DNA of 64,000 bases from Candidatus Anderseniibacteriota bacterium (GTDB taxonomy: Bacteria; Patescibacteriota; Andersenbacteria; UBA10190), in assembly GCA_016197005.1 (NCBI GenBank), contig JACPWO010000001.1, positions 474,544 to 538,543 on the forward strand, in the 5' to 3' direction. A program made the translations under genes and the position numbers. Of the stretch, positions 40,348 through 57,364 are shown one piece after another. Under the pieces are notes generated by a model, which did not search any database, was not told the DNA's origin, and saw only the letters and a program-made list of their open reading frames with translations. Every line of letters begins with the position of its first letter. Position 1 is the first letter of the stretch.

Positions 40348-42147
40348 ATGATTGAATCATTTCTCACGATAATTCTTGCTCCCTTGATTGCTCTGGCAGC
40401 AACACAGCAAGTCTCTATTGTCCCACAAGATACACAGTATGGGGCACTAGCAGCCGCGCAGATATATAACAGCGGATTTTCGACTAACCCAGTCGGAGGA
40501 TCAGTACCAACAGCAGCGCGCGGAACACTAACCGCGTTTCTTATTACAAACCAAGAACACGGAACGCCAGGGGAGCCGGTGGTGGTACGAGCATTGATTC
40601 GTAATGATAGCGCCGGTCCCGCTCGAGATGTAGCGGTAGAACTTTTAGCAGAAGGCGGACTTGAAATAACATCCGTCGAACCAACGGCGGATGATCAAGA
40701 CGAAGACTCACTAACCTGGTTTGCACCTGATATTATTCCTTATGAATATCTGACATATGATATTACTTTCGCTACTTCTTCGCCCGGCCATCTTACCTTG
40801 CGCGTGCAATATCAGAATACAGACGGCAAAGCTTCCGTAGAAACAACTCGGGGGTTAGTGGCGGCTGACGAAGATACCAACCCGACGGAAGAATCGTCTC
40901 CCAGCAGCGCATCTCCGACGCTCGGCGTTAACTTTCAAACCGCGCTGAAAAACGGCACGTATGTCATATTCTGCGGTGATGAAAATGACAGTGAGTGCGC
41001 TGAAAAAAAACCGACACTTGGTAGTCGGTTTAACGAAGCGGTTGCTTCGATCGAACCCGGGGAATGCCGAGTAAACAGTGACGATATCATTGTGACCCCC
41101 GAATATCACGATGCGCTTGGACGAAAATCTCGGCCAGCAGCATATTTTATGTTTCCACTATACGAATCCGGTCAAGATTTTAAGAAATTAGTAGTAGAAA
41201 ATGAAATTGATGGCATTAAAAACATCATTGCAGTCCGCCGCAAACTACTCCCCATATGGCTCGCTTGCGTAAATAAAAAGCAGACACAGGCAGATTGCAA
41301 CCAAACATTAACGGAAGCTCAAAAGAATTTGCTCAAGGATTATGAGGCCATTCAAGATCGGCGGAAAGACCGATTTTCGCCCATTGCTAAACAAGCAGTT
41401 AATAATGCGAATGAATCAATTCGCCGTTCATGCGGTGTTGATTCCGAAAACAACTTACAAGGACCTATCGATGGTGTCCAAAAAGTCTACGAAAGCACAC
41501 TAGATGCTCGAGAGCAGGCCTATACGCCAACGCAAGCTACTTTTATTGCTCTTCTGGGAAACCCGCGTGATGTCAAAGACCCATATAGTGTGTTCGGATA
41601 CGCCCTAACAAACTCCTATCAAGCACACACAACAATTGATAAAAGTCGGGACGAAGCAGTTCGGCTGGAGAATTGGGAAGTCATGCTCGACTCTCCCAAG
41701 ACAGACGCAACGACCTGTGAGAAGGAAATTGTATTTAAAGAACGAGTAGAACGAACCGCTTGCGAGTCTGGTAATTACACGCAAGATATAATCCGAGATG
41801 CTCCAACGCCCGTGAAAGCGAGGCAAGGGTCCATTCAACCACCAAATATTCCTGGTAACATTCCAGAACAATATGCTAACAAACAAACCGTTACCATTGA
41901 AGATCAAGCGCTCGTCGGCGAAGTGTGCGGAGGCCGTCCCGGAGATCCGTATTGGGCCGCCGATTGTTCCTGTAAATGTAACGATGTTTTGAGCTCAGCT
42001 GGCAACGTAATTCCCAAAGGTGATGCAACTGGTGCTGGATTTAACTTATGCCAAGGACAAAAAGAAATAACCCGTCATGATATTTTTGTTACCGATCAGG
42101 CTGAATGCTTAAAACAAGGAGACGAAAGCGATGAAGAATCCTTTTAG
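40348..42147 (+). CDS. Secreted hypothetical protein with Cys-rich C-terminus
   Basis: N-terminal hydrophobic signal/anchor; no known motif; tight spacing within co-directional block. Confidence 0.55.
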   Translation: MIESFLTIILAPLIALAATQQVSIVPQDTQYGALAAAQIYNSGFSTNPVGGSVPTAARGTLTAFLITNQEHGTPGEPVVVRALIRNDSAGPARDVAVELLAEGGLEITSVEPTADDQDEDSLTWFAPDIIPYEYLTYDITFATSSPGHLTLRVQYQNTDGKASVETTRGLVAADEDTNPTEESSPSSASPTLGVNFQTALKNGTYVIFCGDENDSECAEKKPTLGSRFNEAVASIEPGECRVNSDDIIVTPEYHDALGRKSRPAAYFMFPLYESGQDFKKLVVENEIDGIKNIIAVRRKLLPIWLACVNKKQTQADCNQTLTEAQKNLLKDYEAIQDRRKDRFSPIAKQAVNNANESIRRSCGVDSENNLQGPIDGVQKVYESTLDAREQAYTPTQATFIALLGNPRDVKDPYSVFGYALTNSYQAHTTIDKSRDEAVRLENWEVMLDSPKTDATTCEKEIVFKERVERTACESGNYTQDIIRDAPTPVKARQGSIQPPNIPGNIPEQYANKQTVTIEDQALVGEVCGGRPGDPYWAADCSCKCNDVLSSAGNVIPKGDATGAGFNLCQGQKEITRHDIFVTDQAECLKQGDESDEESF

Positions 42148-42895
42148 CAGTCCGGCTACCTGGGTGGCTATTAGTTTTTTAGCAGTCGGTATTTTTCTCC
42201 TTGCTTGGTGGTATAGCAGCCAGGATACGACTGCGTTTCCTGCCAATACTCCATCTCTAAAAACAATTGCGCAAAAAATACTGGAGCCAGTGATGCCGAC
42301 TACTATTCCGGCTGAACCCAATGATGCGTTTACTACCTATCTAGAAGCGGCGACCGGAATATCCGAACAAACCTCTTATACGGCTCGATACAAACTATAT
42401 GCTGGCGTTACCGGTCAGATAACAGAAGGGCTTTCCCAAGAGGAAGAGGTAGCTGCATATGTTGAAGAAGAGAGAAAAAACTTACTGCCTTCAGACTTTG
42501 CAATTCCGCCGCTGGACGCGACGGCTACCGAAGTTACTGCCTACCAACAATCTATCTCACCTACCGCAAACCCAGCGATAACTGCGGTTACGAGCCCAGC
42601 GATTGCGGATGCCTTTCGTAAGTATTTTCAGAACCCCACCACCTCTGCCCTAGATAGGATTAATCAAGATCTCGAAACCACCATTGCTGAACTCAATCGC
42701 ATAGCTGTGCCTGAATCTTTGCGCCCTTGGCATACTGAATACATTCATCTCCATGCGCTCCTGTTAGAAAATATCCAGCTTCTTAAAACAATGCCAGAAG
42801 ATCCCATCGGTGGTCTCGTTGCCGCCCGGAATATTCAAGAACTCGGTGATCGCTTCAACCAACTAGCGAAGGCGCTCAATACGCTGGTACCATAA
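42131..42895 (+). CDS. N-terminally anchored hypothetical protein, paralog family member A
   Basis: N-terminal TM; C-terminal ~70 aa similar to the next two genes (IAELNRIAVPESL...LLENIQLLKTM). Confidence 0.55.
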   Translation: MKNPFSSPATWVAISFLAVGIFLLAWWYSSQDTTAFPANTPSLKTIAQKILEPVMPTTIPAEPNDAFTTYLEAATGISEQTSYTARYKLYAGVTGQITEGLSQEEEVAAYVEEERKNLLPSDFAIPPLDATATEVTAYQQSISPTANPAITAVTSPAIADAFRKYFQNPTTSALDRINQDLETTIAELNRIAVPESLRPWHTEYIHLHALLLENIQLLKTMPEDPIGGLVAARNIQELGDRFNQLAKALNTLVP

Positions 42896-42901
42896 GAAGT
42901 C

Positions 42902-43801
42902 ATGCCTTCTTCAATCAACCGTTTAGGAATAGTGGTCGCTGGTATTGCGGCGCTTGTCATCGTTGCCATTTGGACCCTTTTCATGGGTACACGAGCAGTG
43001 TGGCGACACTTTCATGAACCTGCACCGATCGCGACAGAAGAACATAAAACTGACGTATTATCCGATCAGGACACGGACCAAGACGGCTTAAGCGATGACT
43101 TAGAACCCATATACCGCAGTAACCCAGTTGTTGCTGATACTGACCTGGATGGGACAAACGATGGTGACGAGGTAGTAGCCTTACGCGACCCAACAACTGC
43201 TGGGCCAGACGATGCACTTTTTCCAGAAAACGTCACAAATAACGCCCTTAATGAGAATACGCTGACAAATAAATATCTTCAGACTCTCCCCGCCGATGCG
43301 CCTAGAGAAGAAGTGCTGTCGCCAGAAAAACTTGAAGGATTTGTCGATCAAAATCGCCAACAATTTCTTCCTCAACCTGCTTCTATCCTCATAAAAACCA
43401 CAACCGAGGAGGGGAGAGCAGCAATTGAGGCCTATTTAAACACTGTCTCTTCTTCGCACAATACTAAACTCGTTTTTATATCGAGCGATGACATTGCTCA
43501 GGCATTTCAAAAAAGCTTTGGGCAAGAACAGCATGCTGACTTAGACGCCATTATTGAAAAATTAAAAGCAAATATTGCCATTTTAAAAGAGGCGGCCGCA
43601 CCCGCTGAAGCGGCAGAATTACACAAGAAGCTTGTAGCTGCCAGTGAAGCCCTACTCCAGAACGTACAACTTCTGCGAAATATGAAGGTAGACTATGTAG
43701 CGGGCTTGATTGGTGCAAAAAATCTAGAAGGATTGGCGACAACGTTCACTGAGATAACTACGAGTATTAAAGACCTCGAGTCGAAGTACGGGCTTGAGTA
43801 A
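42902..43801 (+). CDS. N-terminally anchored protein with Asp-rich calcium-binding (thrombospondin type-3-like) repeats, paralog B
   Basis: DQDTDQDGLSDDLE and DTDLDGTNDGDE repeats; C-terminal region paralogous to genes A and C. Confidence 0.55.
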   Translation: MPSSINRLGIVVAGIAALVIVAIWTLFMGTRAVWRHFHEPAPIATEEHKTDVLSDQDTDQDGLSDDLEPIYRSNPVVADTDLDGTNDGDEVVALRDPTTAGPDDALFPENVTNNALNENTLTNKYLQTLPADAPREEVLSPEKLEGFVDQNRQQFLPQPASILIKTTTEEGRAAIEAYLNTVSSSHNTKLVFISSDDIAQAFQKSFGQEQHADLDAIIEKLKANIAILKEAAAPAEAAELHKKLVAASEALLQNVQLLRNMKVDYVAGLIGAKNLEGLATTFTEITTSIKDLESKYGLE

Positions 43802-43815
43802 GCTATACTAACGCC

Positions 43816-44778
43816 ATGTCACGGCGAATTGTTATCGCCATCCTAGTGGTCCTTATCCTTGGTGTCCTTGCCGGTACCGTGTGGCTTGTTATTTCTCGTT
43901 TACGCGCAAACGCTCCCACGGACACAGCCAATGACACCACTCCGGGAACATTGGAAGAAGCTCCTACAGGTGGCCAAAATATAGTAAATCCTACCGGTGA
44001 TGATGACGGGGATGGTCTTTCAAATGCCGATGAGTCTATTTGGGGAGCTGATCCTAAAAATGCCGATACTGACGCAGATGGGTTTAAGGATGGCGAAGAG
44101 GTACGCAATAGCCATAATCCAACGATTGCTGGGCCAAACGACATCCTACCGGATGGATTTACACCAGGAAAAGAAATAACACCTATTGAAGCCGCTCCGG
44201 CTCAACCAATTGCGGTTGACCAGTTTTTTGAAGAGAATGTAAATTTAGAAATTGCGCCAGGTAGAAATTTAACTCTGGAATATGAAAGCAAATACCCAGA
44301 AGATCAGCGAACAGAGGCCAGTTTAATGGATTTTGTCTATCAACAATCTATCGAAGTAAAACTGCCCACCCCTTCCGTTAACTCAACAAATATTTTACAA
44401 CGAGAAGCGAACGCTGCCGACATTAATGCATATGTAGAAGAAGTGGGAAGTTTAGATTTCTTAGGAAACGAGCAAGTAATACAACTAGCGTTGAACGAAC
44501 TACTCAACAATGAAGATCCAACTCTAATTCAAAGTCAAGCAGTACAATTGCAGGTATATCAACAGCTTTTAATTAAGACCCCCGTACCTAAACAAGCAGA
44601 GAGTGTTCACAAATTACTACTAGGCTATAGTGAACTTGCAACAGCCACTTATAATCAAGCCGCTCTTCACCCCGTTGATCCCGTGAAAGCCCTTGTAGCT
44701 ATAAACCAACTCGAATTGATAAATGGGCAATATTTGCCTTTAATTGAACAAGAATTAAATCGCCTTCTCTTAGACTAG
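43816..44778 (+). CDS. N-terminally anchored protein with Asp-rich calcium-binding repeats, paralog C
   Basis: DDDGDGLSNADE and DTDADGFKDGEE repeats; conserved C-terminal helical region shared with A and B. Confidence 0.55.
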   Translation: MSRRIVIAILVVLILGVLAGTVWLVISRLRANAPTDTANDTTPGTLEEAPTGGQNIVNPTGDDDGDGLSNADESIWGADPKNADTDADGFKDGEEVRNSHNPTIAGPNDILPDGFTPGKEITPIEAAPAQPIAVDQFFEENVNLEIAPGRNLTLEYESKYPEDQRTEASLMDFVYQQSIEVKLPTPSVNSTNILQREANAADINAYVEEVGSLDFLGNEQVIQLALNELLNNEDPTLIQSQAVQLQVYQQLLIKTPVPKQAESVHKLLLGYSELATATYNQAALHPVDPVKALVAINQLELINGQYLPLIEQELNRLLLD

Positions 44779-44860: not shown

Positions 44861-46720
44861 ATGTCCTTCTTTCGCCCTGCTTTTTATGCTGTTGGCTTCC
44901 TAATAGTATTTGGCATTCTTGTTGCCGTTCCGAAAGCACACGCAGATCCACATGCAATGTTCTATACCGCAATTGGTCAACAGCAACTCTTTTTTAACGT
45001 TTTAGCAGCCTTGGACCAGGCAGATTATGTTGAGCCATCTACCAACACAACTGGAACTGATTCAGGAAGTTCTCGGGAAGAACTTATAAAAGAGCGTGAT
45101 GAGGCAGCTAAAGCACTTACTGAAGGTGAAACTGGATATCCAGCTGAAGATTTTCCAGTACTAAAAGCAACTGAGAGCGATCTAGCTTCAGTCTTAACTC
45201 GTAATATTTCACTTGAGGGACAAGATATTTGGACTAGTTATTTACTACGGGAAGCTGTGAAGGAAGAGGAGCGACGAGAACATTTTGAAAAACTCACTGG
45301 CATCTTATGTAACATAAGTCAGGGAGCATGTTCTGGTGAAAAAACTCCAAGAGAAGCGTTTGAAACAAGCCCTTTTGAAAAGGCTGTTAATTCCATTACA
45401 AACGGTGCAGTTGGCGCTCTCTTTTCAAGTAACGATCCTAATAGTTACGATCAAGAACGTCGCCGTAAGGCTTTAGAAGATCAGTTCAAAGGAGACGCAG
45501 CTGAATCTATTCCATACCGTGCGGATATCGCTGCGCTAGAGTCAGCCACAAGTGGAGATGTAACAAAAAAAACAACAATTACACAGCTCAAAAATGCTCA
45601 GCTCCGCGGACTACGAAACCCTGTGATAAATCCAAACGCTTTAAGTGGTATTGTTTTTGACCCCGAGACACAAGAACCCTCCCTTGCGTTTGATGAAAGC
45701 AGTGAAGAGTATGATGTTTCTGCATTTACTGGTTCTATTAGTAATTTCCTAACTCTTAATCAGGCGCTTGGTTCAGCCGCGTCAGAGGGAGCAAATAAGA
45801 GCATCGCAAGCAAAAACAGCACAACAGAAGACGGGGGGTACTTAGCAGAAACTATTCAAGCTGCTCGTCCTGCTGGGAACGGAGCAATTGGAGAACTATC
45901 GCCGCGAATACTTCGTCCAGCTGGTGCGGGTCCAGCTGTATTATCAGGAGTAATTTCTAGCTTAGGAATTTCTGAAGGTATTCCCTCTGATGTCAAATTA
46001 AGCGACAAGGAAGACAGCAAGGACGAAGACTGTGATATTAAAAAGGACGGGATCTGTGTAAAGAATAACAGCCCGATTTGTTTTGTAGGCGGCAGCTCTC
46101 TAACCGTTTCGTTTACCCTGAGTAGTACTGGCGGAGAGTCAAAAGCAGGAGTAGTAGCTTTATACCCAACCCAGCACGATGGCGAAATAGGAGGACCAAT
46201 TCGCGATCCGTCTTACTCTCCTCCGTCTAATAATTTTTACGGTAGCAGCGGAAGATCTTGGGGTAATCAATCTATTGGTAATCAAACATACTCTGTATCC
46301 GGAACAGCACAAGTAAACGGTGTACTTGGATATCGCATCCTCTTTAGATACGGTCAAAGCAGTTCCGTTGCTGCAACTTTAATTATTCCTGAGTGCAATG
46401 CCACTACTAGAAGTACCGATCAAAGTCGAATCTTTGGAGCCCAAGACTCGGTCACTGTTAGTCCTTCTTCACCTACTCCAGAAACAATCAATTCACCTGT
46501 AAATGGTTCGGTTTTAGGTACACGAGAAGACTTAAGGAGTGCGGACAATGATTATCTTCCTTTGCATGAGGAAAGTTATGAAGCTCAGAGCTTACTGCAA
46601 GCCCTATCACCGCTTCATTATCAACGCAAAAAACCTGGAAATTCTAGTTCCGGTGGTACCGTCAGTGGGGCAAGCACTACTTCTTATTTTCAGCAGGCGA
46701 TTACTAACTACTTCAAATAG
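44861..46720 (+). CDS. Secreted hypothetical protein (619 aa)
   Basis: N-terminal signal/anchor (FYAVGFLIVFGILVAVPKAHA), Ser/Gly-rich, no known motif. Confidence 0.5.
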   Translation: MSFFRPAFYAVGFLIVFGILVAVPKAHADPHAMFYTAIGQQQLFFNVLAALDQADYVEPSTNTTGTDSGSSREELIKERDEAAKALTEGETGYPAEDFPVLKATESDLASVLTRNISLEGQDIWTSYLLREAVKEEERREHFEKLTGILCNISQGACSGEKTPREAFETSPFEKAVNSITNGAVGALFSSNDPNSYDQERRRKALEDQFKGDAAESIPYRADIAALESATSGDVTKKTTITQLKNAQLRGLRNPVINPNALSGIVFDPETQEPSLAFDESSEEYDVSAFTGSISNFLTLNQALGSAASEGANKSIASKNSTTEDGGYLAETIQAARPAGNGAIGELSPRILRPAGAGPAVLSGVISSLGISEGIPSDVKLSDKEDSKDEDCDIKKDGICVKNNSPICFVGGSSLTVSFTLSSTGGESKAGVVALYPTQHDGEIGGPIRDPSYSPPSNNFYGSSGRSWGNQSIGNQTYSVSGTAQVNGVLGYRILFRYGQSSSVAATLIIPECNATTRSTDQSRIFGAQDSVTVSPSSPTPETINSPVNGSVLGTREDLRSADNDYLPLHEESYEAQSLLQALSPLHYQRKKPGNSSSGGTVSGASTTSYFQQAITNYFK

Positions 46721-46726: not shown

Positions 46727-48808
46727 TTGATGCCATCACTCAAAAAACTTTACCGACCACTACAGCTCCTTCTGATTGGAATGAGTTTTGCTTTTCCGGG
46801 TGGTGCCTCAGCAGAAGAAGTTTACGACATCAGAAACGCAGAACCCATGTACGTCCTTACTTACAATAAGGCAACTCTTATTAGCCAGTACGGGTGTCAA
46901 GAAGTACCAACAGAAGATCGAGTTAATGATTTAGGGTTTGTTGCCTTTGTTATTCCTGATGGTCAAGTGCTAATTAAAACAGTAGAAAGTGAAACCGGGC
47001 AAAATGCTCAAGCAACCAAAAAAGTGTTTGCGTTTGCGTGGGCAATGTGCACAGAAGCACAAGCAGAGGCGGCTTATAAATCACAACCTCAAATTGAAAC
47101 CGGTATCACGCTGGAAGGTGTCCAATATTACGCAGCACAAATAATAAGTTCGGTATTGTGGATGGTAGCCGAAATCGGATTATGGCTACTACAACTTGCC
47201 AGTAAGCTGCTTTTTCCGGTTTTAACCGCGGGGGCTTTTATTACGAACGATATCGTACAAAAGGGGTGGCCTTTCATCCAAGGCTTGGCAAACCTTGGCT
47301 TTATCCTAGCGTTACTAGCAATAGCAGCTTTAACTGTCCTGCGTATTGACGTTGGCGGCGGAGTAAAGCGGCTGCTTCCTCGCCTTTTGATTGCTGCACT
47401 GCTTATTAACTTCAGCCTTGTTATAGGCGGGGTTATTATCGATTCCTCTCGAGTTGTTATGGCTATTTCTTGGCAAATCCTTAAAGGTAGTTCAGGGGCA
47501 ACTCCAGATAAATTAGGGGCTCGGATCATAGATAATTCTCAGCTTATGAAGAATGTTTTTTGTCCGGTAGGATCAGGGGCAAATGCATCATGCGTAGGTG
47601 GTAGCTTCGAGCTTCAGGGGAAAATATATACAACCTGGGATGGTGTTTTAAAAGTTGCAGAGGCAACAATATTTATTTGGGTCATCACAGGAGCCTTGCT
47701 CGTGCTGGCAATTATGCTCTTCATACGCCACGTGGCTCTATTACTACTCCTTATAGTTTCTCCCTTGGCGTATCTGGCTGCCGCGATGCCAGCAGCTGGT
47801 AAATTTGCCTCGCAATGGTGGGAAAATTTCTTGCGATACGTTATTTATGGTCCGGTAGTCATGCTTATTCTCACAATCATTGCTGCCTTAACCGAATCCG
47901 AGAGTGCGGGTGCTGGAATCGATGTAAAATCTTCGTCACTGCGAAATATTATGGAAATGTCGGTGGTTACAGTCTTGATCATAGTAGCAGCAACTGCGGG
48001 TAAATATGTTGGAATGTACGGAGCGGGAGCAGCAGTCGGATTTGTGAAGGGTTTACCAGGACGCGCAGCTAGAAATCCCAAGAAAACTGCCGCCTTAGCT
48101 GCTGGCATTGCTACCGGAGGGCTTGGGTTAGTTCCTAGTCTAGCCGCTGCCGGCGGAACAGCCTATGGAATACGACGCACACAAGATGCCTGGAAAAAAT
48201 TCCAAACTGGTAGAAAGAAAACCCAAGAAAAGAAAGAAAAAGCCTCCTTTATGCAAAGAGCGGGCGAAGTCGGTTTTCGCAAAGCAACCAAAGAAGCAAG
48301 AGGTAGAAATGAAGCATTCAGAGACGCTCGAGTGCAGGGAGATCTTAGTCGCTTAAGTAGAGCTGAACTTACTACCAACCCAGCTCTTTCTCCAGAAAAA
48401 CTAGCTAATCCTTCATTCCTTACGGGGTTAGGAAAATCTAATATTCAAGAAATATTGAAACGAGGAACCAGGAGCCAGCGTGTCGGAATTGCAGCCAGTG
48501 TTGGATCTATGAAGCAAGAATCACCTGCCATGAAGACCGTAATTGACGGGGTAATTAACCAACAAACATTTGATGTTTACAACAGTGCTCAACAAGTTAT
48601 TAATGACCCTACTGCCACCCAAGGAGCAAAAGACAAGGCTGCAAATGAAATTGATGGTATTAATCGTGTTCTGCGCAGTTTGGCAAACAACGAAAAACTT
48701 GTTGATAAAATGGATGCAGGTCAGATACAGCAAATGCTAGAACACGAAGATACGAAAACCACAGATGATCTTTTAAAGAGCCTTAGTAAGACACGGTCTA
48801 GCGGATAA
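46727..48808 (+). CDS. Polytopic membrane protein, VirB6/TrbL-like candidate (T4SS-like inner-membrane component) with Lys/Ala-rich C-terminal tail
   Basis: Signal peptide, ~120-aa extracellular domain, >=6 TM helices, ~230-aa hydrophilic tail; lies next to a VirB4-like ATPase. Confidence 0.5.
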   Translation: MMPSLKKLYRPLQLLLIGMSFAFPGGASAEEVYDIRNAEPMYVLTYNKATLISQYGCQEVPTEDRVNDLGFVAFVIPDGQVLIKTVESETGQNAQATKKVFAFAWAMCTEAQAEAAYKSQPQIETGITLEGVQYYAAQIISSVLWMVAEIGLWLLQLASKLLFPVLTAGAFITNDIVQKGWPFIQGLANLGFILALLAIAALTVLRIDVGGGVKRLLPRLLIAALLINFSLVIGGVIIDSSRVVMAISWQILKGSSGATPDKLGARIIDNSQLMKNVFCPVGSGANASCVGGSFELQGKIYTTWDGVLKVAEATIFIWVITGALLVLAIMLFIRHVALLLLLIVSPLAYLAAAMPAAGKFASQWWENFLRYVIYGPVVMLILTIIAALTESESAGAGIDVKSSSLRNIMEMSVVTVLIIVAATAGKYVGMYGAGAAVGFVKGLPGRAARNPKKTAALAAGIATGGLGLVPSLAAAGGTAYGIRRTQDAWKKFQTGRKKTQEKKEKASFMQRAGEVGFRKATKEARGRNEAFRDARVQGDLSRLSRAELTTNPALSPEKLANPSFLTGLGKSNIQEILKRGTRSQRVGIAASVGSMKQESPAMKTVIDGVINQQTFDVYNSAQQVINDPTATQGAKDKAANEIDGINRVLRSLANNEKLVDKMDAGQIQQMLEHEDTKTTDDLLKSLSKTRSSG

Positions 48809-49413
48809 TGACTCTTATGCCGTCTACTAACTTCTCTGGTATACCTGCCGCATCCTTGGTAATGATTCCCGAGGATAGACGCGCAGAATATATTCGAGCG
48901 CTACGAGCGCTACCTGTAACTTTACTTAAGGCTACTACTTCCGCAAAAACTGGTGCCTACATACTAGGTCTAGCAAAAACGCATGATATCCCCTTGGCAC
49001 AAGTAGAGAATATTTCTTTTGCTATATTTGAAATATTAATTGGCAAAAAAATATTAGTTCAGTTACCTAGTATTTTTTCAACCGAGCTACAGGTTGCTAA
49101 TGACAAAGCTCAGACAATGGCAAGAGAAGTAGAACGTGACTTAATTGCTCCTATATCGTCCGAATTAAATCGATATCTAGCTGATCAAAAAAAAATACAA
49201 GGAAGCATAAGTTCTAAGATTGGAAAGCAAAAATCTAAGCCAGTAGCTACTTCTCCAGCGTTGTCACCAACAACCAACTCAAAACCGGAAATTAGAACAT
49301 TTTCCACCCCTCCATCATTAAAGCGAATACCAAATAAACCTGCAATTCCTCCAAACATTCTTGATCTAAAAAAGAAGTGGGAACAACCAAAGCCCCCACC
49401 AATTCCCAACTAG
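48808..49413 (+). CDS. hypothetical protein, Pro/Lys-rich C-terminus
   Basis: 201-aa ORF translationally coupled to the upstream gene (overlapping stop/start). Confidence 0.4.
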   Translation: MTLMPSTNFSGIPAASLVMIPEDRRAEYIRALRALPVTLLKATTSAKTGAYILGLAKTHDIPLAQVENISFAIFEILIGKKILVQLPSIFSTELQVANDKAQTMAREVERDLIAPISSELNRYLADQKKIQGSISSKIGKQKSKPVATSPALSPTTNSKPEIRTFSTPPSLKRIPNKPAIPPNILDLKKKWEQPKPPPIPN

Positions 49414-50102
49414 CGTTCTGTTTCCTCAATTTTTAGCTGTCCAACGTCGTGTAATCTCTGATTGTGGGATGTCATTGGGTTATAGAAGTTATAAAACAGC
49501 TCTAAAAGTTCAGGGGTTTTTAAAGGTACGGCCCGTAGTCCAATTGCTCGCAGACCGCTAGCCACTTGCTCAACCCGTTGATACAACTGGGCACGATAAT
49601 GTCCAAATTCTTGCTCCGTAATTTTCTGGTTCCCGGTTGCTGCTTTTGCTCCTTTAAATATACGAGCAAAGAATCCTTCTTTGGAGGCTTGAGTAACTGA
49701 AAATGGGATAGTTACAAAAAATGTTTTTGTCATAATACTACTGTCTTTTACTAATTCACTGACGAAGTTAATATATTCTCCCATTTGAACTCGGAGCAGC
49801 TCATTTTGTTGTTTTTCCCGTAGTACCTTGACTTCTTCGAGATAGGGGGTGATATCTGCTTTGCGAGAAGAAATAGTTATCTGAATAGGATAATCAAGAG
49901 AGTTGAGAAAGTCTTGGTAGGCAAAGATAATAGCACTCTGTTCGTCTTCAGACTTTAGGGCGAAGTTAATCGAGGAAACCATAATGACTGCTCGCATTGT
50001 CCCATCATTCAATACTAGAACTCCATCTCGAATTTCTTTAAGACGCACCAGTACCTGGGAGGGTTTCCCTTTCTTCTCTGTTGATTTCATTTCATCGACC
50101 AT
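49410..50102 (-). CDS. hypothetical soluble protein
   Basis: 230-aa ORF divergent from the VirB4-like gene; no motif recognised. Confidence 0.45.
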   Translation of the reverse strand: MVDEMKSTEKKGKPSQVLVRLKEIRDGVLVLNDGTMRAVIMVSSINFALKSEDEQSAIIFAYQDFLNSLDYPIQITISSRKADITPYLEEVKVLREKQQNELLRVQMGEYINFVSELVKDSSIMTKTFFVTIPFSVTQASKEGFFARIFKGAKAATGNQKITEQEFGHYRAQLYQRVEQVASGLRAIGLRAVPLKTPELLELFYNFYNPMTSHNQRLHDVGQLKIEETER

Positions 50103-50106
50103 AGTT

Positions 50107-50553
50107 CTACTGAGGGACAGTTAAAGGATCTTCTTCATCTACTTTAGAAATATTACCTTCTGTTTCAAGCGAACGCGAGGTAGCTGCTAAAGCAGAAAAG
50201 TCTTCTTGGGCTGATCCACGAGCGATGAGTAATTCCTCCCACTCTGCATCCTGAATAACAAGAATGCGAGGGGTCTTTGTGCGCTGCCAGATATATAATT
50301 GGCCACTAGAGTAAAAGCGGAAAGCAGACGACACCGTTGAAGCGAGAGACTTACCATTAACTTTCCAATGAGCAAATGCGGCCGCTATACCCAGCACAGG
50401 GAAAGCAGCAGAAAAAAAGAGAGCAAGATCAGAAAACAAGAATACTGGCACTAGCGTTAGAGCCGCAGCTACATACATAAGAAACTGTTTTAGGGTAAGC
50501 GGCCCCAAAATTTTATCTTCAATATCAACAAACTGCGGTACCTGATAACGCAT
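50107..50553 (-). CDS. Small 2-TM protein, PrgI/VirB3-like candidate
   Basis: 148 aa; N-terminal MRYQVPQFVDIEDKILGPLTLKQF followed by two adjacent TM helices, as in PrgI/VirB3-type proteins. Confidence 0.4.
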   Translation of the reverse strand: MRYQVPQFVDIEDKILGPLTLKQFLMYVAAALTLVPVFLFSDLALFFSAAFPVLGIAAAFAHWKVNGKSLASTVSSAFRFYSSGQLYIWQRTKTPRILVIQDAEWEELLIARGSAQEDFSALAATSRSLETEGNISKVDEEDPLTVPQ

Positions 50554-50600: not shown

Positions 50601-52454
50601 ATGAGCATTGTGAAAGATGCCGTTTCTTACCTTCGCGGCAATAAAGGCGATAAAACCGCAGCTACAGCTGACCATAAAAAAGCTGAGGGAGAAAGCGAGC
50701 GCCAATTTAATGAAGGAATATCTTCATTGACGGATATTTTAGCTCCGGCCGGATATAAGGTGGGGCCACGCCATTTAGAAATAGACGGCAAGTATGTGAC
50801 TACTCTTTTCGTTACAACGTACCCCCGTTATTTAGACACAAACTGGTTTTCACCAATTGTGAACTTTGACGTTGAGTTTGACGTTTCCATGTTCATCTAT
50901 CCGCAAGATACAGCGGCTATGCTTAAAGTTCTTCTAAAACGAGTTACTCAGGTATCTGCCTCTATCTCCATGAAGACGGAGCAAGGGAAAGTTCGCGATC
51001 CACAATTAGAAACGGCTTACCAAGATATTGAAGAGCTGCGCGATCGACTGGTACAAGGCACGGAACGTTTTTACAAGTTCGGCATGTACTTAACTCTGTA
51101 TGCCGATAGCGAAAAGGACCTTGATGATGTGCTATCTCAGATCCAGGTACTTCTGGAGGGGCGCCTGGTATATGCCAAACCTGCGCTTTTCCAAATGGAC
51201 CTGGGCTTTACTTCCACACTTCCATTAGGAAATGATCGACTTGCAGTAAATACCAACATGAATACTTCACCTCTTTCCACAACATTCCCATTTGTTAGCT
51301 CCGACTTAACAAGTAATTCTGGTGTTTTATATGGCATTAACCTCCACAACAGCAGCCTTGTCTTATTTGATCGTTTCAGTTTGGAAAACGCGAATATGGT
51401 CATATTCGCCAAATCCGGTGCGGGTAAAAGCTATACGGTAAAGCTTGAAGTGCTGCGCTCTCTCATGTTTGGAACAGAAGTCATTATTATTGATCCGGAA
51501 CAAGAGTATCGCTATCTATCAGAGGCAGTGGGAGGAAGTTACTTAAAAATTGCTATTGCGTCTGATCACCGTATTAATCCCTTCGATCTACCAGAATTAA
51601 ACGAAGATGAAGAACCAGACTCAGTTCTTCGTGAAAACGTTATCCGCCTTATTGGTCTTGTTACTCTCATGGCTGAAGGACTTTCTGCTGAAGAGCAGTC
51701 GGTCGTAGATAAGGCCCTCTGGGAAACATATGCTTTGAAAGACATAACGCCAGGCGTTCGCTGGCAAAAACCAGAGGTACCTACTCTCCAAGACTTCTAT
51801 AACATCTTAAAAGAAATGGATGGGGGCACAAACGCTGCTACACGACTTCAACGATTCGTTGAGGGAACGTTTGCTGGCGTATTCAATAGACCAACCAATA
51901 TTGATCTAGATAAGCAGCTCGTTGTATTTAACATCCGCGACATGGAAGAGGAGCTGCGCCCGATTGCTATGCACGTTGTACTCGGATACATCTGGAATCG
52001 TGTGCGCTCGAAACTTAAAAGGCGCCTGTTAGTAGTAGATGAGGCGTGGATCATGATGAAACACGAAGAGTCAGCTAAATTCTTGTTTTCCATGGCGAAA
52101 CGCGCTCGTAAGTACTACTTAGGAGTCACTACTATTACACAAGATATTCAAGATTTCCTTGCATCAAAATATGGCAAACCAATTGTCACCAACTCCTCTA
52201 TCCAGCTTCTTTTACGGCAAAGCCCGGCAGCAATCGATATGTTAGCTCAGGTGTTTTACTTAACTGATCATGAAAAATTCCGTCTCCTGGAATCTGACGT
52301 AGGCGAAGGTATTTTCTTTGCTGGTTTAAAACATGTGGCAATCAAAGTTATTGCGAGTTACGCAGAAGATCAGATTATTACTTCCGATCCACGGCAAATT
52401 TTAGCTATTGAAGCCGCTAAGAAGGAAATGCAAGAGCAAGAACTTACTAACTAA
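50601..52454 (+). CDS. VirB4/TraC-family T4SS-like ATPase
   Basis: Walker A FAKSGAGKSYTV; Walker B LLVVDEAWIMM with the VirB4-characteristic DEAW; ~600 aa, no TM. Confidence 0.75.
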   Translation: MSIVKDAVSYLRGNKGDKTAATADHKKAEGESERQFNEGISSLTDILAPAGYKVGPRHLEIDGKYVTTLFVTTYPRYLDTNWFSPIVNFDVEFDVSMFIYPQDTAAMLKVLLKRVTQVSASISMKTEQGKVRDPQLETAYQDIEELRDRLVQGTERFYKFGMYLTLYADSEKDLDDVLSQIQVLLEGRLVYAKPALFQMDLGFTSTLPLGNDRLAVNTNMNTSPLSTTFPFVSSDLTSNSGVLYGINLHNSSLVLFDRFSLENANMVIFAKSGAGKSYTVKLEVLRSLMFGTEVIIIDPEQEYRYLSEAVGGSYLKIAIASDHRINPFDLPELNEDEEPDSVLRENVIRLIGLVTLMAEGLSAEEQSVVDKALWETYALKDITPGVRWQKPEVPTLQDFYNILKEMDGGTNAATRLQRFVEGTFAGVFNRPTNIDLDKQLVVFNIRDMEEELRPIAMHVVLGYIWNRVRSKLKRRLLVVDEAWIMMKHEESAKFLFSMAKRARKYYLGVTTITQDIQDFLASKYGKPIVTNSSIQLLLRQSPAAIDMLAQVFYLTDHEKFRLLESDVGEGIFFAGLKHVAIKVIASYAEDQIITSDPRQILAIEAAKKEMQEQELTN

Positions 52455-52463: not shown

Positions 52464-52886
52464 ATGGCTACGTACAACGCAGAATCCCAAAATGCAGCAC
52501 GCTTAAATTTTGATCGCCGTCTCAGCCAGACACAACCGCAAGGTACTTCATCAAATCGAAATCCAGCAAGCAATTTAGCGAGCCGATTACCAGGCGCGTC
52601 AATGGCACAACGTCTGGGCCTTAACAAAAACCAGAGAGCGCAGAGAAAACAACCACAAGATATAAGCGAGAAAGCACTATCAACCGCACTGACTGCAGCA
52701 AAATTTGTTGCTAAAAGACTTGCGTGGATGCTTATGACGTGGCTATTCGGAATTCTCATCTGGCTTGCTCCATGGATACTACTTATTTCCTTAGTTCTGC
52801 TTATAATTATTGTTATCTTTGATGCAGGCGCCCTCGAAGCAGCTCGAGACACCTTCGTAGAATTGACCGTAAAAAGTCACCCATAA
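52464..52886 (+). CDS. Small membrane protein, hypothetical (T4SS-like module)
   Basis: 140 aa, long C-terminal TM hairpin (WMLMTWLFGILIWLAPWILLISLVLLIIIVIF). Confidence 0.4.
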   Translation: MATYNAESQNAARLNFDRRLSQTQPQGTSSNRNPASNLASRLPGASMAQRLGLNKNQRAQRKQPQDISEKALSTALTAAKFVAKRLAWMLMTWLFGILIWLAPWILLISLVLLIIIVIFDAGALEAARDTFVELTVKSHP

Positions 52887-52888: not shown

Positions 52889-53350
52889 ATGAGAACAAAA
52901 ATCCTATTTTCTCTTTTTGTTACCCTGCTTACATTCAGTGGGATACTTATTAATTCTATTCCCGTACTCGCACAGGACGAGGAGGATCCATGCGCAGAGA
53001 GTCCATTCGGATGTTTTGAAGCTCCTTTACCGGGCATATTTGATGGAAAAATTCTTGATTATGTAAAAGATAATGAAGGAAGTGCCCTAACATCTTACGT
53101 TGGCACTGTTGTTGAGTTTGTTACCGCTACGATTATCATCGTTGGCCTCATTCTTATTGTGGGCGGAGGTTATGTGTATATGACTGCTGGGGGCAGCGCT
53201 GAACGCGTAGGAACCGCTAAAACAATGATTGGCTCTGCTTTGCTAGGAATAGTTCTGGCCTTAGTAGCAGTTCTTATCTTAAATACGCTTAGCCCTCAAT
53301 TTGCTGAGCAGGCAAAAGAACCTTGTATTGGCGAAGACTGCCCAGAGTAA
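52889..53350 (+). CDS. Pilin-like protein (VirB2/TrbC-like topology)
   Basis: Signal peptide (cleavage near VLAQDE), then two hydrophobic helices (VVEFVTATIIIVGLILIVGG; IGSALLGIVLALVAVLILN); Cys at both ends. Confidence 0.45.
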   Translation: MRTKILFSLFVTLLTFSGILINSIPVLAQDEEDPCAESPFGCFEAPLPGIFDGKILDYVKDNEGSALTSYVGTVVEFVTATIIIVGLILIVGGGYVYMTAGGSAERVGTAKTMIGSALLGIVLALVAVLILNTLSPQFAEQAKEPCIGEDCPE

Positions 53351-54503
53351 GAGCTATTAATACAAAGTGTAGTATCGCTAAATCGTTCTTCCAAAAGATA
53401 GTGTCAGTAAAACCAAAGAGTATTAATACAAATAAAGCTAAAGCCACAGAAAACTTGAGACCTCTTTGGTAAAATATCCAGACGTGAAGAACAAGAAAGG
53501 CTCCTACCCCCACTAATCCGGTATTAAGCCAAAAAGAGAGAACCAAACTATGTGGATCCCTATACACAAATTCACTAAGTGGCTTTTTTTGTGATCTAGA
53601 GTTTTTAAAACTCTCAAAACGCTCGTGAAGTTTTCCTTGGTATGCCGGCTCAAAAGTTCCCAGCCCAATGCCAAGGATTGGGTTTTCTCGAATGAGTTCC
53701 CCCGAAATATCCCATAGTTGTAGTCGAACATATGCAGAACTGGCTGGTTGTAATAAGTAACTCGTCTTTTGAACGCTCACCCATACCGCAATCACCAACA
53801 AAATACTTACTGAGATTAAGACGAGAGGTTTTCTTGTTAACTGTATGTGTGGACGTAATGAGATTGTTCCTAAAAAAAGAACTACTATCACTGTCAGAAT
53901 ACCAGCCAGTGACTTTGTTCCCAGCAGGGCTATAAACATGGTACCGGCCATCAAGTAATTGATCTGCCATCCTCCAATTTTTATTCTTGTAAAAACGGCC
54001 AATACAATTAACGGCGCAAGAAAAAGTGCCAGGGATGCAGGGACATCATACACGCTCCGAATTCGATCAAGTGTTCCAATCTGACTAATGCCAATAAGCG
54101 CCACCACTACCCCTGATGTAATAAGCGCATTTAAGATATAGTCTCGTATCTTAGGAAATCTCCAAGTAGCTATATATACCTGAGCGGCATATAGCAAAGG
54201 GACTAATATCCACCCTTTTAAAACTCCAAGACTCGTCTCAGGGTGAGGAGAAATGATAGTAGAAACAACTGCTGCTGCAACAAAGAGAAGGAGACAAGTA
54301 GCTACTGGCCATGGTAGGACCCACATAACTTCTTTCCAACTTCGCCTCATTGTGGGTTGCAGAAACCCTGCAATTGTCACCCCAATAATCAGCACCTCAA
54401 GTACGTTTGTAGGAATACCCAATACGGAAAACCGCACCAGATACGTCGGTAAGAGAGCGGCTATCGCTATGAGGCCGTATCGGTAGAGAGGCTCAGTGCC
54501 CAT
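53289..54503 (-). CDS. Polytopic membrane protein, O-antigen ligase/Wzy-like candidate
   Basis: ~10-12 TM helices with a larger loop; adjacent to GT2 and Wzx genes. Confidence 0.45.
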   Translation of the reverse strand: MGTEPLYRYGLIAIAALLPTYLVRFSVLGIPTNVLEVLIIGVTIAGFLQPTMRRSWKEVMWVLPWPVATCLLLFVAAAVVSTIISPHPETSLGVLKGWILVPLLYAAQVYIATWRFPKIRDYILNALITSGVVVALIGISQIGTLDRIRSVYDVPASLALFLAPLIVLAVFTRIKIGGWQINYLMAGTMFIALLGTKSLAGILTVIVVLFLGTISLRPHIQLTRKPLVLISVSILLVIAVWVSVQKTSYLLQPASSAYVRLQLWDISGELIRENPILGIGLGTFEPAYQGKLHERFESFKNSRSQKKPLSEFVYRDPHSLVLSFWLNTGLVGVGAFLVLHVWIFYQRGLKFSVALALFVLILFGFTDTIFWKNDLAILHFVLIALTLGSLRQYKVLLPAQQIEG

Positions 54504-55792: not shown

Positions 55793-56508
55793 ATCGATGG
55801 AGAATAGTGCTTTTTGAAGTACTTGTCTGCAGAGGCATCATATAGCCGGGCTTTCACTCGCTTATTACTCAAGCTTGCTCCACGTTCATGCCGTACTTTT
55901 ATCGTCGGCTCAATTACTACTTTCCACCCACCAACACGCGCCCGGCGACATAGGTCAACATCCTCCCAATACATGAAGAACTCTTCATTAAAGCCCTTTA
56001 GTTGTTCAAATGTCTGTCGGCGAATAAGCATGGCTGCTCCAGAGACCCAATCTGGCAATTGGTATTCCGATTGGTACGTTTTTCCTTTTTTAATAAGTGA
56101 CCATAGCGTTGGCTCCATGCCATACGCAAAGGTTTCTGGTTTACCATCAGAATCTTCTAAACCCAATCCGATAATACCTATTTGTGGGTCAGCTTCGAAT
56201 ACGGCCGTAGCAACGTCGAGCGAACTTTGTAACTCGGCATCAGGATTGATGAAAAGGAAATACGCAGGAAGCGTGGCTTGGTTAATAAGAGCAGCTACTC
56301 CCTGATTTATTGCCGCTCCAAATCCCTTGTTAGTAGCATTTACGATTGCAGTAACCGAAAGGGTATGTAATATCTCAACTGTTTTATCTTGAGAGGCGTT
56401 ATCAACGATAACGATACGAGAAATATTCGCCCGCTGCAGACTTTGTACACACTTTGTGATCGTGTGCTCATTGTTATGGGTAACAATAGCGACAGCAGTT
56501 TTGTTCAT
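55732..56508 (-). CDS. Family 2 glycosyltransferase
   Basis: AIVTHNNEHTITKCVQSL...IVIVDNASQD GT-A N-terminus, DxD-like motif. Confidence 0.8.
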   Translation of the reverse strand: MNKTAVAIVTHNNEHTITKCVQSLQRANISRIVIVDNASQDKTVEILHTLSVTAIVNATNKGFGAAINQGVAALINQATLPAYFLFINPDAELQSSLDVATAVFEADPQIGIIGLGLEDSDGKPETFAYGMEPTLWSLIKKGKTYQSEYQLPDWVSGAAMLIRRQTFEQLKGFNEEFFMYWEDVDLCRRARVGGWKVVIEPTIKVRHERGASLSNKRVKARLYDASADKYFKKHYSPSIWLLQRFLRHLYRLVSPYSR

Positions 56509-57287: not shown

Positions 57288-57364
57288 ACTGGGGAATTAT
57301 ATGTGGAAAACTCTGTGGGAAAAGGGGTCGTCATCTGTGTACAAGTCTGGACACTAATACTAGT

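Follow-up and report, generated by a model that had tools for sequence, protein, structure and literature searches.

Does the 153-aa membrane protein encoded at 52889..53350 (+) in this Andersenbacteria chromosome belong to the T4SS cluster that surrounds its gene, and which component of that system would it be? Patescibacteria account for much of bacterial diversity and seem to live at the expense of host cells, and a monoderm-type T4SS is chromosomal in most of them. Their T4SS, pilin genes included, is essential in the sole species tested and is the foremost candidate for a physical connection with the host. From an analysis of the whole 64,000-nucleotide stretch of DNA (hereafter the window), we conclude with a probability of about 75% that the protein is the precursor of a pilin-like T4SS subunit and belongs to the PF18895 / NF045849 family, as the VirB2-like component of a monoderm-type (MPF-FATA-like) system.

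Anatomy of the precursor

The open reading frame runs from ATG to TAA over exactly 52889..53350 (+), and its product is identical to the NCBI hypothetical protein HYR90_05010 from a Candidatus Andersenbacteria MAG. Signal-peptide and topology calls were based on hydropathy, the -3/-1 rule, charge bias and family conservation. The N-terminus starts with MRTK and carries a hydrophobic stretch over residues 3-28 (Kyte-Doolittle, 19-residue window, at least 1.6), followed by a Sec-type -3/-1 cleavage site, VLA/QD, after residue 28. The residue at -1 is Ala in 87 of 93 relatives and that at +1 is Gln in 58 of them. These features support the cleavable signal peptide (residues 1-28, 52889..52972) that the first-pass annotation had proposed.

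The predicted extracytoplasmic N-domain (residues 29-65, 52973..53083) is acidic and contains Cys35, Cys42 and the motif FGxFE...LPG, in which G41 and E44 are invariant in alignment A1 and at least 90% conserved in alignment A3. Two strongly hydrophobic segments were placed at residues 69-102 and 107-140 by hydropathy, and the AlphaFold2 model (mean pLDDT 89.1) shows helices at residues 66-98 (53084..53182; pLDDT 92-97) and 104-134 (53198..53290), in line with the two hydrophobic helices and short loop that had been suggested earlier. The helices are connected by the polar stretch from T99 to K111 (TAGGSAERVGTAK; 53183..53221), which includes the start of helix 2. Together with G94-Y-V-Y-M98, it forms the family motif G-[YF]-x-Y-[MI]-T-A-G-G...A-K, and Y97, G102 and K111 are invariant across the 93 relatives. 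The acidic C-tail (residues 135-153, 53291..53347) opens with a conserved SPQF whose P136 is invariant in A1, and varies in length from 5 to 43 aa in the family. The net charges of the N-domain (-8), loop (+1) and C-tail (-4) are consistent with an N-out/C-out orientation and a cytoplasmic loop. The sequence thus fits a predicted topology of a cleaved signal peptide and two TM helices joined by a short charged cytoplasmic loop, with both termini outside.

Cysteines had been noted near both ends and taken as a possible sign of a disulfide or cyclisation. They are present, at positions 35, 42, 146 and 151. The N-domain has two cysteines in 54 of the 93 relatives and none in 32, and 28 relatives have no cysteine anywhere; cysteines in the C-tail are rare, and the non-conserved Cys146/Cys151 pair (CxxxxC) is almost unique to this protein. 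Since cysteine counts in the family are overwhelmingly even, disulfides are plausible, and most likely the four residues form them; these cysteines are not conserved. Cyclisation through cysteines, on the other hand, is unsupported. The cyclisation of TrbC/VirB2 pilins is a head-to-tail peptide bond, as in the T-pilin and RP4 TrbC.

Family membership

When scored singly, the protein fell below the cut-offs of PF18895 T4SS_pilin (15.6 bits against 26.6, E 0.017), NF045849, the Mbov_0395 pilin-like family (19 bits against 40, E 8.5e-4), and PF04956 TrbC/VirB2 (18.3 bits against 27.9, E 0.0028), and its own Pfam scores were no better than its matches to the unrelated TM families BaxI_1 and NicO. 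The curated cut-offs of PF18895 and NF045849 are an operational threshold and not a biological feature. Nine homologues were found at E 1e-13 to 1e-27, and the profile of alignment A1 found 37,359 representative clusters, with the query itself at E 1e-52. The ORF is thus a genuine, conserved gene and no chance reading frame. At E <= 1e-3, PF18895 was matched by 64 of the 93 relatives, NF045849 by 61 and PF04956 by 10 (best 1.6e-6). Two homologues exceed the PF18895 cut-off of 26.6 bits: P0003 (53% identical to the query, E 1.8e-25) at 31.3 bits and P0005 (54% identical) at 27.4 bits. In addition, hhalign aligned the family over both helices and the loop with a Pontibacillus plasmid protein (probability 93%, E 3.4e-7) that scores 47.4 bits on PF18895. 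By sequence comparison, the protein is demonstrably homologous to proteins that pass the PF18895 cut-off; it has their signal peptide, two-helix hairpin and loop motif G-[YF]-x-Y-[MI]-x-[AS]-x-G ... A-K, and it is encoded inside a VirB4-containing T4SS cluster. The earlier proposal of a T4SS pilin-like protein of VirB2/TrbC-type topology is borne out by these family-level matches and by VirB4 synteny, and the kind is a published one. The curated cut-offs under-call the PF18895 / NF045849 family, and family-specific profiles are therefore needed: current Pfam and NCBIfam thresholds miss this pilin, which NCBI labels "hypothetical".

VirB2-like pilins of Patescibacteria were described by Wang et al. 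2023 (PMC10633639) and Quinonero-Coronel et al. 2025 (PMC12102498), and were found near virB4 in 1,135 Patescibacteria assemblies (PMC12102498). The protein resembles them in its signal peptide, two-helix hairpin and loop motif (G-[YF]-x-Y-M-T-A-G-G...A-K), and in the position of its gene near virB4 together with PrgI, TrsD and a VirB6-like gene. It differs in that it would fail the i-Evalue < 0.001 of the published screen for Pfam models, in its additional C-terminal CxxxxC, and in being encoded by a single gene rather than by an array of 2-11 pilins; the 64 kb window yielded no pilin paralogue. Some relatives join four to seven hairpin modules into a single covalent chain. One of these fused arrays also carries an SLT lytic transglycosylase, and a seven-module relative (P0019) reaches 54.9 bits on PF04956.

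The classical VirB2/TrbC pilins (Agrobacterium T-pilin, RP4 TrbC, R388 TrwL) share with the protein a pair of hydrophobic helices around a short basic loop, a gene position within a VirB3/VirB4 cluster, and signal cleavage between Ala and Gln, the sampled alphaproteobacterial precursors conserving A-x-A-Q at the equivalent position. It differs from them in its extracellular N-domain, which at 37 aa is larger and carries a pair of cysteines. In a small sample of nine alphaproteobacterial VirB2/TrbC proteins from plasmids, hhalign gave a probability of 7.5% for a match to the pilin family. Family profiles A1 and A3 matched no pilin by sequence among all PDB chains. A Foldseek search of the PDB with two AlphaFold2 models (pLDDT 68.6 and 89.1) returned only generic helical hairpins (best E ~1), with no T4SS pilin in the top 50; the helical hairpin is a generic fold, and this outcome does not count against a pilin. 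Unlike diderm T4SSs, the system belongs to a monoderm host, has no outer-membrane core complex genes and has no identified VirB5.

The T4SS cluster around the pilin-like gene

The VirB4-type ATPase of the cluster (50601..52454, +) lacks the N-terminal domain; it scores 368 bits on NCBIfam conju_CD1110 (cut-off 325), covering model positions 185-733 of 752, and 89.7 bits on Pfam P-loop_TraG. A TrsD / TraC-like protein (49410..50102, -) is homologous to the VirB4 N-terminal domain: it aligns with the CD1110 VirB4 model over positions 11-121 (E 1.8e-9), hits NCBIfam TrsD (E 7.4e-6), is listed as PF26593 TraC-like, and matches a 274-aa Pontibacillus protein in phmmer (E 9e-29). Between this gene and virB4 lies a PrgI-family gene (50107..50553, -; PF12666, 30.5 bits, cut-off 27), whose orthologues, 37-68% identical, stand directly upstream of TrsD-VirB4 in 10 loci. 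On the opposite side of TrsD, a conserved soluble protein, p201 (48808..49413, +), has orthologues (28-44% identical) at the same position in seven loci and matched no Pfam or NCBIfam family. The next gene upstream (46727..48808, +) encodes a putative VirB6-like membrane protein. Its several hydrophobic segments, which fit a polytopic protein, and its conserved position, a Pfam TrbL/VirB6 match below the cut-off (E 0.0063) and a BLASTP match to a 779-aa TrbL-like protein of Pontibacillus (E 3e-4) point weakly to this assignment. Further upstream are p619 (44861..46720, +), a secreted or anchored protein with an N-terminal hydrophobic segment, with a 41% identical orthologue in a related locus (L001) and no Pfam or NCBIfam family match, and, at the start of the cluster, three N-terminally anchored proteins of 254, 299 and 320 aa (42131..44778, +) with orthologues in the same locus; the 320-aa protein has a bacterial TSP3 repeat.

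The first-pass annotation had placed the pilin-like gene next to the ATPase. The two genes lie in the same T4SS cluster and on the same strand, VirB4 435 bp upstream, but they are not direct neighbours, because a 140-aa gene (p140, 52464..52886, +) sits between them, 9 nt after the VirB4 stop and 2 nt before the pilin. The pilin is probably co-transcribed with VirB4 and this small membrane protein. PrgI, TrsD and the VirB6-like gene are all less than 6 kb from the pilin. Scans for regulatory sites yielded no usable operon boundaries, since the terminator-like sites, although more numerous than in shuffled sequence, all lie inside ORFs with none after the pilin stop; a sigma-70 promoter scan found fewer sites than in shuffled sequence.

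The intervening protein had also been suggested as a VirB3-like partner. The N-terminal 85 aa of p140 are basic (net charge +10) and of low complexity, and a hydrophobic segment follows at the C-terminal end (residues 86-129). In 12 related loci the slot between VirB4 and the pilin holds a protein of 113-261 aa built in the same way; these slot proteins have no detectable sequence similarity to p140, and jackhmmer among the 13 slot proteins found no link to it. No VirB3, PrgI or TraL match to p140 was found in Pfam or NCBIfam, and hhalign of five p140 positional orthologues against the PrgI of the window gave a probability of 0.1%. p140 and VirB3 / PrgI are both small membrane proteins encoded beside VirB4, but the architecture of p140, with its TM segment C-terminal after a long basic region, is the opposite one, and the suggestion was rejected. 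By its PF12666 score, it is the PrgI-family protein encoded at 50107-50553(-) that represents VirB3 in this cluster. The reading of p140 as a second, degenerate pilin was likewise rejected, hhalign with the pilin family giving a probability of 0.4%.

Related loci were sought with a 10-sequence pilin alignment. Twelve related CPR loci preserve at least the order VirB4, slot protein, pilin; the longer order VirB6-like, p201, PrgI, TrsD, VirB4, slot protein, pilin is preserved in the 5-8 related CPR loci whose flanks are long enough to show it. The PrgI-TrsD segment is inverted here relative to related loci, and no inverted repeats were found at its junctions to explain the inversion. Neither relaxase nor coupling protein (T4CP) was found in the 64 kb window by Pfam searches of large ORFs or by tblastn with the Embleya T4CP and relaxase. 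dnaA lies at 61923, 8.6 kb from the pilin, and KsgA at 37885. In Patescibacteria T4SSs, relaxases are mostly absent and the genes lie near dnaA and KsgA (PMC12102498). The absence of a nearby relaxase and the closeness to dnaA and KsgA are shared with the published loci; the locus is the published Patescibacteria T4SS arrangement, a textbook copy that adds little new.

Proposed role and origin of the pilin

Gram-positive T4SSs have a VirB2-like pilin, PrgF, which has been modelled on a VirB6 pentamer; PEG-labelling of residues in its loop speaks for exit of the subunit from the membrane (10.64898/2025.12.18.695078). According to its published description, PrgF (PrgF_B2 of Enterococcus pCF10; ter Beek et al. 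2025) is, like the protein studied here, a small two-TM protein with a charged loop, and its gene shares an MPF-FATA-type cluster with those for PrgI, PrgH/VirB6 and VirB4; its polymerisation on the VirB6 pentamer has been proposed. The Andersenbacteria locus differs in being chromosomal and near oriC, in lacking a relaxase or T4CP anywhere in the window, and in having the pilin gene downstream of virB4 rather than upstream of virB6.

By analogy with VirB2 and PrgF, and given that the pilin array is essential in Southlakia epibionticum (PMC10633639), a series of steps can be proposed. Cleavage by signal peptidase would release a 125-residue mature pilin that pools in the cytoplasmic membrane. 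The mature pilin would then be extracted and polymerised on the VirB6-like platform, with VirB4/TrsD supplying the power. The product would be a helical tube, its lumen lined by the pilin loop (R106, K111) and its surface displaying the acidic N-domain and C-tail, which disulfides may stabilise. Such a tube may serve host-cell contact or exchange rather than conjugative DNA export. The relatives with four to seven fused modules are hard to square with a simple polymer built one subunit at a time.

The protein could instead be a genuine T4SS subunit that builds no extended pilus. It would then remain within the membrane or just above it and, on the VirB6-like core, line a short channel or stalk that spans only the thin envelope. 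No pilus has been observed in Patescibacteria or Gram-positive T4SSs (10.64898/2025.12.18.695078; PMC12857230), and the fused arrays, including the one with the SLT lytic transglycosylase, would suit a fixed assembly in the membrane or cell wall better than a free polymer. The topology, loop motif and gene context are nevertheless shared with pilus-forming VirB2 and with PrgF, whose loop labelling argues for exit from the membrane, and we regard the short channel as a possible but rather unlikely alternative.

The genes downstream of the pilin raise a proposal that would supplement the pilin reading rather than replace it, namely that the pilin is O-glycosylated by this conserved block, which encodes two Wzy_C/O-antigen-ligase-like proteins, three GT2 glycosyltransferases and a flippase-like protein. 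PglL/PilO O-oligosaccharyltransferases carry a Wzy_C domain. The order pilin, Wzy_C(-), Wzy_C(-), followed by GT2 where annotated (L002, L004), is kept in related loci, and there is a convergent overlap of 62 bp between the pilin gene and the first Wzy_C gene, compared with 41 and 32 bp in two relatives. However, the linkage is confined to close relatives (VirB4 73-83% identical) and may therefore be mere inherited gene order; more distant family members have no Wzy_C neighbour, the pilin and Wzy_C genes lie on opposite strands, and no glycosylation sequon was identified. We regard glycosylation, proposed from this analogy, as improbable.

A still weaker case can be made for an unrelated small membrane protein with two TM segments, perhaps holin-like or accessory to a transporter, whose pilin matches are artefacts of hydrophobic composition. 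Its basis is that the single-sequence matches to TrbC and T4SS_pilin are no stronger than those to BaxI_1 and NicO and that the fold search is non-specific. Among the 93 relatives, however, each unrelated TM family was matched by one member only, against 64 and 61 for the two pilin models; what is invariant is a polar loop motif and not hydrophobic residues alone; VirB4 synteny is conserved; and the 93% hhalign match is to a PF18895 protein inside a Firmicute T4SS cluster. We consider this interpretation effectively refuted. A type IV pilus (T4P) pilin was rejected as the most improbable assignment: the conserved G-x-F-E (G41, F43, E44) superficially resembles a G/FxxxE prepilin site, but its G-to-E spacing is 3 residues instead of 6, it follows a normal Sec signal peptide with no hydrophobic helix after it, the two TM helices lie near the C-terminus in place of one N-terminal helix, and no T4P family match was found in Pfam or NCBIfam.

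For the pilin reading, the origin of the family can be considered from plasmids. The plasmid VirB4s closest to the VirB4 of the window come from monoderms (35-38% identity), and on monoderm plasmids that carry them (Pontibacillus, Embleya) PF18895 pilins adjoin a VirB6-like gene. tblastn of the pilin against 72,556 plasmids gave no match at E <= 1; the plasmid relatives surfaced only through the VirB4 neighbourhood and the profile. Whether the CPR pilin was inherited with a monoderm system or co-opted from diderms was left open in PMC12102498, and the presence of PF18895 in the closest monoderm plasmid T4SSs bears on this question. The PF18895 pilin could be the ancestral VirB2 of the monoderm MPF-FATA lineage, common to Actinobacterial and Firmicute plasmids, Mycoplasma ICEs and CPR, rather than a loan from diderms, and the Andersenbacteria tube a device that taps the host, importing or exchanging metabolites or macromolecules and not exporting DNA; we hold this combined proposal to be doubtful. 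A modest additional result is that Firmicute and Actinobacterial plasmid T4SS clusters with the closest VirB4 also encode PF18895 pilins, and that these homologues share the pilin loop motif.

Anatomy of the pilin gene and its product

The 153-codon ORF at 52889-53350(+), running from ATG to TAA, encodes a protein whose signal peptide consists of an MRTK start and a hydrophobic core (Kyte-Doolittle 19-residue mean of at least 1.6 over residues 3-28) with a -3/-1 cleavage site, VLA|QD, directly after residue 28. Two hydrophobic blocks follow at residues 69-102 and 107-140, with TAGGSAERVGTAK between them, and cysteines are located at positions 35, 42, 146, and 151. An AlphaFold2 model computed from 93 relatives (mean pLDDT 89.1) contained helices at residues 2-22 (signal peptide), 55-61, 66-98, and 104-134. 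The net charge was -8 in the N-domain (29-65), +1 in the loop, and -4 in the C-tail, a pattern that fits a mature pilin predicted to have outward-facing termini and a cytoplasmic loop. The ORF, hydropathy, cysteine, charge, and AlphaFold2 results therefore agree with the first-pass annotation, which had described a signal peptide followed by two hydrophobic helices with a short loop between them, and cysteines near both ends of the protein.

The exact protein is present in NCBI on a 575,969-bp contig, and nine homologues showed 41-58% identity to it (E 1e-13 to 1e-27). Searched against 1.84 billion representatives, a profile of these ten sequences matched 37,359 clusters at E <= 1e-3, of which 3,328 passed E <= 1e-10. 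The ORF is therefore a conserved gene belonging to a very large family. Local hmmsearch of all six-frame ORFs detected no second pilin gene in the window.

Two cysteines in total, both in the N-domain, were found in 47 of the 93 relatives and none in 28, while C-tail cysteines occurred in nine. The cysteine total was even in 60 of the 65 relatives having any, and this bias argues for extracytoplasmic disulfides, which are not a requirement of the pilin family. Two relatives with one N-domain and one C-tail cysteine suggest that these segments may lie close together. The 2 + 0 + 2 pattern was seen only in the query, where disulfides could be local (C35-C42, C146-C151) or crossed. Thus, of the two roles proposed earlier for the cysteines, disulfide formation is supported by the even-count bias, whereas cysteine-mediated cyclisation is without support. 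T-pilin and TrbC are known to cyclise through a peptide bond between head and tail.

Family assignment and relation to classical VirB2/TrbC

By itself, the query reached no curated pilin threshold: it scored 18.3 bits on Pfam TrbC/VirB2 (PF04956; cut-off 27.9), 15.6 bits on Pfam T4SS_pilin (PF18895; cut-off 26.6), and 19 bits on NCBIfam "Mbov_0395 family pilin-like conjugal transfer protein" (NF045849; cut-off 40). Since the Pfam families BaxI_1 and NicO matched at similar strength, single-sequence scores this low are noise for a hydrophobic protein. Among the 93 relatives, which are 33-53% identical to the query, PF18895 was matched by 64 (best E 1.9e-9), NF045849 by 61 (best E 2.4e-8), and PF04956 by 10 (best E 1.6e-6); unrelated membrane families were each matched by one member only. 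The close homologues P0003 (31.3 bits) and P0005 (27.4 bits) exceeded the PF18895 cut-off. Y97, G102, and K111 were invariant and G94, Y95, M98, T99, and A100 at least 90% conserved across the relatives, the loop motif of the family being G-Y-x-Y-M-T-A-G-G...A-K. Judged from these alignments, the conserved core of the family is more than mere hydrophobicity. The family-level matches, the scores of P0003 and P0005, and the loop motif point to the query being a divergent PF18895/NF045849 pilin, and we put the probability of this assignment, together with its role as a T4SS component, at about 0.9.

No solved pilin was found by sequence with either the ten-sequence or the 93-relative profile, and Foldseek searches of the PDB with either AlphaFold2 model returned generic helical hairpins only (E ~1). 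Nine VirB2/TrbC genes were taken from alphaproteobacterial plasmids, Ti among them; hhalign of the 93-relative alignment against these gave a match of only 7.5% probability (E 0.0047), in which the aligned stretch was the equivalent end-of-helix-1/loop/helix-2 region. The seven-module relative P0019 scored 54.9 bits on PF04956, and classical VirB2/TrbC proteins share with the query an Ala|Gln signal peptide end and an identical topology. These likenesses, together with the ten PF04956 matches among the relatives, are in favour of a remote VirB2/TrbC relationship, and by analogy the query may work like a VirB2, its own PF04956 score being below the cut-off. The earlier proposal of a pilin with VirB2/TrbC-type topology was right; sequence and structure searches did not lead to a solved pilin.

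The relatives P0019, P0048, P0020, P0031, P0102, P0086, and P0126 each carry, behind a single signal peptide, 3-7 tandem pilin hairpin modules in one ORF, with no obvious signal-peptidase sites between modules. P0019 has seven modules (PF18895, 159 bits). In P0020, four modules precede an SLT lytic-transglycosylase domain (76.5 bits), which makes it a VirB2x4-VirB1-like fusion. No mention of multi-module pilin fusions was found in the T4SS literature cited.

The surrounding T4SS cluster and its monoderm counterparts

The neighbours of the pilin are a monoderm-type T4SS core. The VirB4 ATPase (50601-52454, +) scored 368 bits on NCBIfam conju_CD1110 (cut-off 325) and lacks the N-terminal domain, because the match covers only model positions 185-733; a TrsD/TraC-like protein (49410-50102, -) matched positions 11-121 of the same model. 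The PrgI-family (VirB3) protein (50107-50553, -) scored 30.5 bits (cut-off 27), and a VirB6-like polytopic protein (46727-48808, +) gave a weak TrbL/VirB6 match (E 0.0063). KsgA (37885-38781) is located immediately upstream of the cluster and dnaA (61923-63305) 8.6 kb downstream of the pilin, which puts the T4SS close to the origin of replication, a position reported for many Patescibacteria. Neither a coupling protein nor a relaxase was found in the window using Pfam on large ORFs and tblastn with the Embleya T4CP and relaxase. In Patescibacteria, VirB4 forms a clade nested within MPF-FATA, TrsD, PrgI, VirB6, and VirB2-like pilins occur near virB4 (1,135 assemblies), and relaxases are mostly absent, with dnaA and KsgA close by (PMC12102498); all cluster features in the window match.

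Twelve related CPR loci were collected, three by exact-protein look-up and the others by scanning 185,579 species genomes. All keep the order VirB4(+), small variable gene, pilin, followed by a Wzy_C(-) gene and, in most, a second; TrsD or PrgI-TrsD lies upstream in ten, and the entire run from the VirB6-like gene is present in five. All 22 loci from the species-genome scan were Patescibacteria MAGs, and in the 11 most distant (Doudna-, Uhr-, and Magasanikbacteria) VirB4 was absent from flanks of at most 6 kb.

The pilin had been placed next to the ATPase; it is in the same cluster, but the gene of a 140-aa protein, p140 (52464-52886, +), separates the two, starting 9 nt after the VirB4 stop and ending 2 nt before the pilin start. 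The pilin is apparently co-transcribed with VirB4. The suggestion that p140 is a VirB3-like partner was wrong, as VirB3 is the PrgI-family protein. Pfam and NCBIfam gave no substantial match to p140, which has a basic 85-residue N-terminus (net +10; Ala/Gln/Ser/Arg-rich) without signal peptide and a single C-terminal hydrophobic stretch (residues 86-129). The proteins encoded between VirB4 and pilin in the 12 loci (113-261 aa, net +4 to +21, Gly/Ala-rich) share this architecture, with hydrophobic stretches of roughly 37-60 residues, and showed no similarity to p140 by tblastn, alignment (18-24% identity), or jackhmmer. Kinship of p140 with the pilin family (hhalign 0.4%) or the PrgI of the window (0.1%) was rejected. 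It is best described as a position-conserved, fast-evolving candidate partner, membrane-anchored and probably facing the cytoplasm.

When the VirB4 was searched against 72,556 plasmids by tblastn, the best matches were monoderm, in Embleya (37.6%) and Pontibacillus (35.8%). The Pontibacillus cluster (L037, NZ_CP062975) opens with two tandem PF18895 proteins (2483-3395; 47.4 and 23.8 bits), the first named "Mbov_0395 family pilin-like" in NCBI, followed by a 779-aa TrbL-like protein, which the VirB6-like protein of the window matched by BLASTP (E 3e-4), a PrgI/TraL-like protein, a TrsD homologue (E 9e-29 to the window TrsD), a CD1110-type VirB4, and an M23 peptidase. The 93-relative alignment matched the first Pontibacillus pilin at 93% (hhalign, E 3.4e-7, 69 columns). 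The Embleya cluster (L038, NZ_CP108778) contains, directly upstream of the VirB6-like gene, a 176-aa PF18895 ORF (2583-3113, 72.4 bits) that the PLSDB gene table lacks, as well as a fused PrgI-TrsD (349 aa), a T4CP, and a relaxase. In both plasmids, the PF18895 pilin gene adjoins the VirB6-like gene. These clusters show the pilin family together with MPF-FATA-type VirB4 in Actinobacteria and Firmicutes; judged from the NCBIfam model name, it also occurs in Mycoplasma ICEs. Because MPF-FATA had been thought to lack VirB2, co-option of the CPR pilin from diderm systems was left open (PMC12102498); the two plasmid clusters and a PrgF preprint (10.64898/2025.12.18.695078) tentatively favour its inheritance with the monoderm system.

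These analyses demonstrate that the query is a conserved, secreted, two-helix protein of a T4SS pilin family in a relaxase-less chromosomal cluster. The kind has already been described; the query adds a member that is labelled "hypothetical", scores below the thresholds, and lies in a textbook arrangement. On the analogy of VirB2 and PrgF, signal peptidase would cut after Ala28, the mature 125-residue pilin would pool in the membrane, and VirB4/TrsD would power its extraction on the VirB6-like platform. The subunits could then build a tube, with the loop (R106, K111) lining its lumen and the acidic N- and C-terminal segments on its surface; by the same analogy, the tube would serve host contact or exchange, not conjugation. 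That the query builds an extended pilus appears slightly more probable than the opposite. Epibiotic growth of Southlakia epibionticum requires the T4SS genes, among them the pilin array (PMC10633639; review PMC12857230).

Other features of the window

The PrgI-TrsD pair (49410-50553, -) is inverted relative to VirB4, leaving the divergent PrgI and VirB4 starts only 47 bp apart, and no inverted repeats flank the segment. In all 11 related CPR loci retaining PrgI and/or TrsD, these genes are co-directional with VirB4; L036, an independent Logan assembly, has the same inversion. A LysM + M23 peptidase (34413-35720, -) 3 kb upstream of the cluster, whose M23 domain matched the large Pontibacillus M23 protein directly after VirB4 (37% over 89 aa, E 1e-9), is a candidate VirB1-like partner for opening the cell wall. 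Five genes in a row at 38812-44778(+) (508, 599, 254, 299, and 320 aa) gave no family assignment, each product having a single hydrophobic segment at the N-terminus; at least three have same-place orthologues in the related locus L001, and one has a bacterial TSP3 repeat. Their products are probably surface proteins of, or travelling with, the T4SS cluster.

The pilin gene and a Wzy_C (O-antigen-ligase-like) gene converge and share 62 bp (53289-53350); in relatives the overlap is 41 and 32 bp. The block at 53289-59709(-) comprises two Wzy_C genes followed by glycosyltransferase-like ORFs, which have orthologues annotated Glycos_transf_2 in loci L002, L004, and L036, and by an ORF the size of a flippase. 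The Wzy_C pair accompanies the pilin in Andersenbacteria-like loci, with GT2 genes next where annotated. This linkage might be a sign of pilin glycosylation, or no more than an inherited gene order.

The rRNA operon (18406-27695) is interrupted between 16S and 23S by tRNA-Ile(GAT), an HTH protein gene (20234-20626), a CCA-adding/poly(A)-polymerase-family gene (20713-22149), tRNA-Ala (22409-22480, -), and a mechanosensitive-channel-like gene (22616-23317). At 3,723 nt, the 23S match is longer than its 2,925-nt model, and a group I intron (25851-26102) lies inside it. ARAGORN also predicted a tRNA-Ile with anticodon TAT (UAU) at 5106-5180(-), uncommon in bacteria, where AUA is usually read by a lysidine-modified CAU tRNA.
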